Virus record (IMG/VR): IMGVR_UViG_3300039208_000529
Span: 1-48,442 of that record
DNA: 48,442 nt
Reading direction: 5' to 3' (one strand)
Source of the DNA: a virus
Taxonomy: Duplodnaviria > Heunggongvirae > Uroviricota > Caudoviricetes
The notes under the pieces are model-generated. The model saw only the letters and a list, made by a program, of their open reading frames with translations, searched no databases and was not told the DNA's origin. Positions 23,997-24,692 of this stretch are shown here, piece by piece. The translations under genes were made by a program, and so were the position numbers. Numbering within the stretch: the stretch's first letter is position 1; the number at the start of each line of letters is the position of its first letter.

Positions 23997-24343
23997 GTCT
24001 TTTCTTTAAAGTTGTCTATGTGATAGTTTACGAAGTTGTAGTAACTTGATCTACAATGTGTTTCTCTAACAGTGCTATTACATTTTGGACATTCTATATT
24101 ATACTCAGGATTCTCTCCGCTTGTCCAATAATCTCCACCTGTACAACTATAAGGCTCAACATAATATTCCACAACTTGAACAGTTAATTTGCTAATTGCT
24201 GTCCCTTTTCCACACGAAGGACATTTCCATTTACGATTAGAACGTAAACGTTCTTTCTGTTCTTGCAAATCTTTGATCTGCTTATCAATTTCAGCTTCAG
24301 CCGGCGTCCAAGGTAATTCCATATCTTTCTCTTTCATCATCAC
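23978..24343 (-). CDS. Zinc-finger hypothetical protein (start may be 24322)
   Basis: CPSCG...PYSCTGGDYW...CPKC. Confidence 0.7.
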   Translation of the reverse strand: MMMKEKDMELPWTPAEAEIDKQIKDLQEQKERLRSNRKWKCPSCGKGTAISKLTVQVVEYYVEPYSCTGGDYWTSGENPEYNIECPKCNSTVRETHCRSSYYNFVNYHIDNFKEKTWIKRQ

Positions 24344-24692
24344 TCATCCCAAAACGTTCAAGTGCTTCCCTCGTGTGACTCACGGTCACATCTCCACCAG
24401 CCATTCAGTCCCACCCTGTATAATCACAGCCTGCGGCTAAGTTAAAATACCGGCCGTCAGAAAGACGACCATAAACAATCCAGGTTGGTCCGTCATTCTC
24501 GCCTTCTTCTATACCATAAATCTCAACAACGTCCTCACGAACAAAATGATCAACAGGAGTATTTTCCTCTGTTAGAACAGCGGAAACATTGGGAGTCCCA
24601 TCGCGACTCCATGGACCATCTTCACCATATTCTTCTACGCCCGCATACTCAAACGCTTTAGCCCAACTATATCCTTCAAGCTCTTTCAACAT
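24297..24692 (-). CDS. Candidate selenoprotein (in-frame UGA at 24407-24405), about 131 aa
   Basis: EGENDG..W...AAGCDYTGWD-TGA-MAGGDVTVSHTREALERFGM...; frame stays open for 35 codons; SECIS-like hairpin just downstream. Confidence 0.65.
24374..24390 (-). promoter_or_regulatory. Bacterial SECIS-like hairpin
   Basis: UGUGAC-CGUGA-GUCACA; loop begins 20 nt after the UGA and has GU at loop positions 2-3. Confidence 0.6.

Follow-up and report, generated by a model that had tools for sequence, protein, structure and literature searches.

An in-frame UGA codon (24407-24405, minus strand) in a small gene of a virus of the Caudoviricetes probably encodes selenocysteine (Sec), by virtue of a SECIS element read by the SelB protein of the host. 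We put the probability of this reading at about 0.8 from comparison of the sequences, and the predicted product is a selenoprotein of 131 residues. We infer three things, namely that Sec is the residue inserted, that host SelB inserts it, and what biochemical role is played by the motif in which it is placed. The gene was found in a window of 48,442 nucleotides, by which we mean the whole stretch of DNA analyzed. The window makes up the first 48 kb of a virus record of 177,556 bp (~178 kb), with a G+C content of 40% and an estimated completeness of 89%. The record exhibits no DNA similarity to deposited phages, and tblastn gave matches only in five uncultured Caudoviricetes records. The terminase is only 27% identical to those of Bacillus phages, and it therefore gives no inference on the host.

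The read-through coding sequence occupies positions 24297..24692 of the minus strand, and comprises 95 codons, the UGA as codon 96, 35 further codons and a stop, giving the product of 131 amino acids. The start codon is taken to be the ATG at 24690..24692 (minus strand) rather than the listed TTG at 24716, because the N termini of the homologs read MLKEL. This ATG overlaps the last codons and the stop (TGA 24688-24686) of an upstream gene of 92 amino acids, an arrangement that suggests translational coupling between the two. In the original prediction the open reading frame ended with ...AAGCDYTGWD at the TGA (24405..24407) and was followed by 35 open codons. Re-reading the minus strand gave the same result; the 35 codons (24300..24404, minus strand) read MAGGDV...ITLDAG, and are closed by a TGA at 24299-24297. 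They are homologous to a C-terminal strand and two helices of those relatives that have Cys in place of the UGA. The motif around the proposed Sec codon is GCDYTGWD-U, i.e., C89-x6-U96. The base 3′ of the UGA is A in the window and C in most relatives. Gene callers end the protein at 95 amino acids, and the 95-residue product is the form entered in the database. It had also been claimed that the 35 codons cross an otherwise unexplained gap between genes. There is indeed a gap, but at about 60 nt it is smaller than was implied. The gene call in an identical contig (L182) makes ATG 24340 the probable start of the next gene, and the read-through frame and this gene overlap by ~44 nt.

The gene is located within a block of minus-strand genes spanning 20310-26394. 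All those named here are on the minus strand. They encode a metzincin-like protease (25738-26394), a zinc-ribbon protein (23978-24343), a Thg1-like tRNA-His guanylyltransferase (22894-23619), IscU/NifU_N (21737-22117), a PagL-like protein (21319-21786) that scored below the Pfam cut-off, GroES (21015-21368) and a truncated release factor of RF1 type (20310-21015). The last of these has 204 amino acids from the listed ATG, and scores 228 bits on the NCBIfam prfA model compared with 159 on prfB. A short leader, MKTNRRCL, apparently lies ahead of it and has AGGAGA-UGU-CUU-UGA-G at its end. This layout is that of the +1 frameshift site of prfB, and the +1 frame runs on into conserved sequence of release factor domain 2. 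The RF1 gene thus seems to be controlled through a prfB-like CUU-UGA frameshift site, and this would tie synthesis of the phage factor to the efficiency of UGA termination in the host.

Homologs of the protein were sought using the read-through translation as the query, with the TGA read as Cys. The search gave 27 relatives besides the window's own 95-residue entry. In 21 of these there is Cys at the UGA column and the homology continues beyond it. The Cys relatives are 110-172 amino acids in length and cover 85-100% of the query, the full-length ones aligning over 95-100% of the product, with a consensus of GCDYTGWD-C-QAGG...V..T...RFG...ER.RLG. A motif CDYTGWDCQxGG with Cys at this column had been given in the original prediction, and it is seen in the alignment. 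Five of the 27 stop at GWD or GWG, exactly as the window does, and the two closest (72-73% identity) are among them; P0026 and P0027 are two more forms that are cut off at this position. In the closest relatives, L001 and L002/L003, the TGA is followed by CAA and the frame goes on to encode a homologous C terminus.

The codon following GW[DG] was collected from viral contigs, from one genome per species and from metagenome contigs, taking 160 nt for each context. Among 137 distinct contexts the codon is TGA in 34, TGC in 66 and TGT in 37, while TAA, TAG and other sense codons are found in none. The alternation of Cys and TGA expected of a Sec position is therefore present (34 TGA versus 103 TGT/TGC), with the homology continuing 3′ of the codon. 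Two patterns that would have spoken against the prediction are absent from this set, in that the homology does not end at this column, and neither Trp nor any other non-Cys residue is found there. The published definition of a selenoprotein family calls for two or more distinct TGA sequences and two or more Cys homologs, with conserved flanking sequence and a SECIS-like hairpin (PMC1976440). The corresponding numbers of TGA forms and Cys homologs are 34 and 103 here. The same TGA is present in the Logan contig L182 (SRR4039776), which is identical to the window over 151 nt; this contig and the virus record may derive from the same sample. The Logan contigs of SRR4039775/SRR4039776 hold three related phage variants, i.e., L182 (identical over the 151 nt compared), L001 and L002/L003, each of which has the TGA together with a differently compensated hairpin.

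Could the UGA be a real stop codon? The gene would then produce a truncated protein of 95 amino acids, either alone or with a separate peptide of 35 amino acids initiated at the adjoining AUG, and would be a split or decaying gene. This is where the gene callers end the protein, and in the window phage only, the sequence UGA-AUG with the purine-rich GGGUGGGA just 5′ could in principle permit termination and reinitiation. However, the 34 distinct TGA forms belong to several clades, yet all are interrupted at the same codon, and always by TGA. In nearly all the other TGA forms the next codon is CAA, CAG or CGN, encoding Gln or Arg. These forms lack a start codon 3′ of the TGA, which means that their downstream part could not be translated as an ORF of its own, and for this reason we have rejected the 35-codon tail as an independent small ORF. 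Moreover, Met directly follows Cys in the intact Cys forms P0012 and L086, so that the UGA-AUG of the window reflects a Gln-to-Met substitution that is tolerated, and does not speak for a second gene. The downstream frame is open, with synonymous changes, and its strand and two helices are an integral part of the structural model below. Nor would a decaying gene gain a co-varying hairpin. We therefore regard termination at this UGA as quite unlikely.

The selection acting on the downstream frame was analyzed using close TGA forms from a clade that is sister to that of the window. Comparison of L030 with L144, L146 and L150 over 30 codons 3′ of the TGA gave dN = 0, with dS in the range 0.34-0.59. 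Judged from these substitutions, the frame 3′ of the UGA is under purifying selection. An AlphaFold2 model built from the family alignment has a pLDDT of 83 and pTM of 0.80. In this model residues 99-105 form a strand of the sheet, and residues 108-114 and 118-124 form helices; the mean pLDDT is 93-95 across residues 101-130. The strand and both helices are encoded 3′ of the UGA, and thus the 95-residue product would be without all of them. Conserved coding past the UGA is found in the alignment, in the translations, in the dN/dS values and in the model.

Having established that the frame continues beyond the UGA, we turn to the RNA immediately 3′ of it. The original prediction placed a perfect 6-bp hairpin 14 nt past the UGA and its loop at a distance of 20 nt, and re-reading of the sequence returned the same coordinates. 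The SECIS-like hairpin occupies positions 24374..24390 of the minus strand, with the 5′ arm UGUGAC at 24390-24385, the 5-nt loop CGUGA at 24384-24380 and the 3′ arm GUCACA at 24379-24374. In the bSECIS model the loop has 3-9 nt, the upper stem 4-16 bp and the spacing between UGA and loop is 16-37 nt; one of the first two loop nucleotides is G, the base after it is usually G or U, and the MFE is at or below −7.5 kcal/mol (PMC13188914). The 5-nt loop, the 6-bp stem, the C-G-U at the start of the loop and the spacing of 20 nt all lie within this model, as was predicted. The calculated energy of the window hairpin is −6.4 kcal/mol alone, which ranks it among the weaker ones in the family, −10.2 kcal/mol in a constrained fold that includes flanking pairs, and −10.8 kcal/mol for the MFE of 60 nt.

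How often would such a hairpin be encountered in this genome? Among the 199 ORFs of the phage that end in TGA and have at least 60 amino acids, 5.5% have an equally stable bSECIS-type hairpin at 16-37 nt. Just one of the 199, the gene at 24297-24692, has it at a spacing of 18-22 nt, and no other combines such a hairpin with 30 or more read-through codons. The hairpin exceeds chance. A scan of positions 24200-24500 against Rfam at E up to 10 gave no SECIS family, and only chance snoRNA-like rows. The bacterial SECIS models in Rfam are specific to gene families, so that this null result says little. A covariance model constructed from the window, L001 and L002 was dominated by sequence and, of the other TGA forms, placed only L087 and L030 ahead of the noise, and it has not been counted as evidence.

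The folding of the RNA was compared between the 34 TGA forms and the 103 Cys forms, using a window of 27 nt from nt +10 to +36. We take this comparison to be the unbiased test of the hairpin. The median local MFE is −9.05 kcal/mol in the TGA forms and −5.0 kcal/mol in the Cys forms (Mann-Whitney p = 4e-11), and an MFE at or below −7.5 kcal/mol is found in 29/34 and 13/103, respectively (Fisher p = 9e-15). The G+C content is equal between the two groups, as calculated for the first set of 66 contexts. A loop at a spacing of 19-20 nt with E ≤ −6 kcal/mol is present in 27/34 TGA forms and 6/103 Cys forms. Thus the hairpin is conserved and specific to the TGA forms, as the prediction demanded. The loops of the TGA forms include AGUU (14), GGUC (8, with L047 and L106 as examples), CGUGA (2) and GGU (2), while the sequence of the stem differs almost everywhere across these forms.

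The hairpin also exhibits covariation. The stems of L001 (GAGCGAC/GUCGCUC) and L002 (GUGCUAC/GUAGUAC) contain compensatory changes relative to the window, with three of the six to seven pairs changed on both sides. When 15 TGA forms were aligned in one register, each of the six stem pairs was found to be changed on both sides, and 96.7% of the cells could pair, although the latter value is partly circular because these 15 forms were picked for having a predicted hairpin in that register. The covariation score is 0.876, where shuffling gives 0.244 (0/500), and sliding the partners by 1-3 columns makes it collapse. A few of the Cys forms, for example L032 and L033, have strong hairpins about 10-36 nt past the Cys codon, with an MFE of −13.8 to −14.2 kcal/mol. 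Such hairpins in Cys forms may be left over from an earlier Sec codon that reverted to Cys.

We have also considered whether the genetic code of the phage might be altered, with TGA used as a sense codon (table 4 or 25) or read by a general UGA suppressor tRNA. The phage has both an RF1-type release factor and a tRNA with a CUA anticodon, and these are features that have been seen in recoded phages. The tRNA is of the amber suppressor type (G000:C1:152892-152967, minus strand, outside the window) and is the sole suppressor-like tRNA in the genome. It would read UAG and not UGA, however, and none of the phage's 10 tRNAs has a UCA anticodon. The coding density is highest under table 11, at 0.93 compared with 0.90 when TGA is read as sense. 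Of 274 greedy ORFs in the phage 101 are ended by TGA and 58 by TAG, and in 16 loci of other TGA forms TGA is the commonest stop, ending 69 of 171 ORFs. TGA is thus an ordinary stop elsewhere in the phage. Furthermore, the residue aligned with the UGA is Cys rather than Trp or Gly, and the apparent prfB-like CUU-UGA site at the RF1 gene would imply that UGA is a stop in the host. A change of code is consequently highly improbable.

If the UGA is translated as Sec, what provides the machinery? No tRNA-Sec, selA, selB or selD was found in the phage genome, and the machinery of the host is therefore required. No tRNA-Sec was detected in 15 other records with TGA forms, i.e., 14 phage records and one bacterial MAG. 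The latter is a 1.4-Mb Ratteibacteria MAG (L087), for which the completeness is not given, and it has no SelB, SelA or SelD above the cut-off. The TGA form in this MAG sits on a contig of 7 kb that may be a mis-binned phage fragment. The virus record that contains the TGA form L049 also has an unusually long tRNA of 86 nt, at L095 1500-1585 on the minus strand, with GCA (Cys) as its anticodon. Against the tRNA-Sec model of Rfam it reaches 38.5 bits, short of the cut-off of 47. This could be a Cys tRNA with a long arm, occurring alongside a TGA form of the family in one phage.

That no Sec machinery was found in the phages examined, or in the one MAG with a TGA form, would fit a UGA that is deliberately read through with a standard residue. 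In such a scheme a near-cognate Trp or Cys tRNA, or a suppressor, would decode the UGA while the hairpin slowed termination, and SelB would play no part. The conserved downstream frame and the hairpin would also suit such structure-stimulated read-through. Nevertheless, the sense codons at this column are Cys in 103/103, which is the signature that defines selenoproteins (PMC1976440). The hairpin is of the type bound by SelB, with G-U or G-G opening a small loop at a fixed spacing of 19-20 nt, and the codon is only ever TGA, never TAG or TAA. We consider read-through with a standard residue to be unlikely.

The insertion of Sec thus remains our preferred reading, and can be described in terms of the following steps. 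At the UGA (24407-24405) the hairpin located 14-30 nt downstream would act as a SECIS of the bacterial type. Host SelB loaded with GTP and Sec-tRNASec would bind the apical loop at its G-U and deliver Sec. Translation would then run on for 35 more codons, so completing the fold with one β-strand and two helices. In the putative product the Cys-x6-Sec pair could be a redox-active selenylsulfide or a metal-binding site.

The distribution of Sec and Cys within the family was examined using a maximum likelihood tree of 73 distinct proteins, 18 of them TGA forms. The latter are dispersed over the tree, requiring a minimum of 11 changes between Sec and Cys, of which at least three are forced by strongly supported (starred) branches. 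None of 500 shuffles of the labels required as few changes (0/500). In most members the G-U of the loop comes from bases 1 and 2 of a conserved Val codon, one that the Cys forms share. Since the Val codon pre-exists, only the flanking codons need become complementary, and this may explain the repeated switches between Cys and Sec. The conclusion that emerges, and which we hold to be likely, is that this is a genuine selenoprotein family in viruses of bacteria, in which the second Cys of an invariant C-x6-C loop has been replaced by Sec several times independently, each time using an fdhF-like SECIS constructed around a pre-existing Val codon, with host SelB reading the UGA. Prophage copies are found in genomes of Paenibacillus, Cohnella, Planctomycetota, Polyangiaceae and Gemmatimonadaceae, and all are Cys forms. 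At 50% identity the family comprises 2,086 clusters at E ≤ 0.001, and 1,206 at E ≤ 1e-10.

The protein was also compared with known families and structures. Searches of Pfam, NCBIfam and PHROGs gave no family, and a profile search of the PDB gave no match. Foldseek with the model gave no match in the PDB at E ≤ 0.001, and in a wide VIA-align comparison the best Z was 4.7, for α+β folds of the cystatin-like, WGR-like and NTF2-like types, which is below a meaningful level. Two Trp, a Gly, a Leu and an Asp are invariant in the region of the sheet, as is the motif C-(D)-Y-T-G-W-(D)-[C/U]. The loop containing the motif is modelled at low confidence, with a pLDDT of about 59, and this would fit a putative site that becomes ordered on binding a metal or a partner, or on forming a disulfide or selenylsulfide. 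The homologs sit among small unnamed genes of the early region, near DNA methylases, YqaJ and ParB_N; their gene neighborhoods contain no recurrent partner and provide no functional clue.

Were the UGA to be decoded as Sec, there would be a number of consequences. The full-length protein would be made only in Sec-competent hosts that are replete in selenium, and the UGA could thus sense the state of the host. Phages would be tapping the Sec machinery of the host for their own proteins, and the Sec form would be a marker of host range, since the host must have selABCD. Gene callers would systematically truncate genes of this kind. Lastly, the repeated switches from Cys to Sec in a small protein would provide a compact natural system in which to study the advantage of Sec over Cys.

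The use of Sec has been catalogued in bacteria, archaea, eukaryotes and a few poxviruses. Redox selenoproteins typically contain CxxU or UxxC motifs, unlike the C-x6-U of the phage protein. The loop sequence GGUC is that of fdhF in E. coli. It is common to many members of the phage family, which in this respect are fdhF-like. We found no report of a phage selenoprotein in the literature searched by phrase. A 2026 review of the prokaryotic selenoproteome mentions neither phages nor viruses (PMC13188914), and the BSepDB paper does not mention phages.

How does the phage gene compare with known systems? It most closely resembles bacterial genes with a SECIS inside the reading frame, for which fdhF of E. 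coli is the prototype. Both have the alternation of UGA and Cys at one column, with a small (N)G[G/U] loop directly 3′ of it, and the 20 nt found in the window lies within the range of 16-37 nt. Unlike the bacterial selenoprotein genes, the phage gene is carried by a virus that lacks its own selA, selB, selC and selD, and in its case insertion of Sec is a prediction. The phage family also differs from the known bacterial selenoproteins in having no relative in Pfam or the PDB and no known function. Metagenome families of unassigned function, such as OS_HP1-3, were recognized by the same criteria (Zhang and Gladyshev, 2007; PMC1976440), and the phage family has every one of the features required, in much larger numbers. 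OS_HP1-3 were attributed to bacterial symbionts (PMC1976440), whereas the present family is found on viral contigs and in prophages.

The known viral selenoproteins are the glutathione peroxidases of poxviruses, i.e., GPx1 of molluscum contagiosum virus and GPx4 of fowlpox virus (PMC1802603). They are encoded by the virus and need the Sec machinery of the host, and the SECIS of fowlpox GPx4 lies inside the coding region (PMC1802603), as we propose for the phage gene. However, the poxvirus genes use a eukaryotic SECIS that is read by SBP2, and their products are host-derived enzymes of known function (PMC1802603). In the phage gene the element is of the bacterial type and immediately 3′ of the UGA, and the protein belongs to an uncharacterized family. 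The mechanism that we propose is the known bacterial one; the novelty lies in its being carried by a virus of bacteria, and in the protein family.
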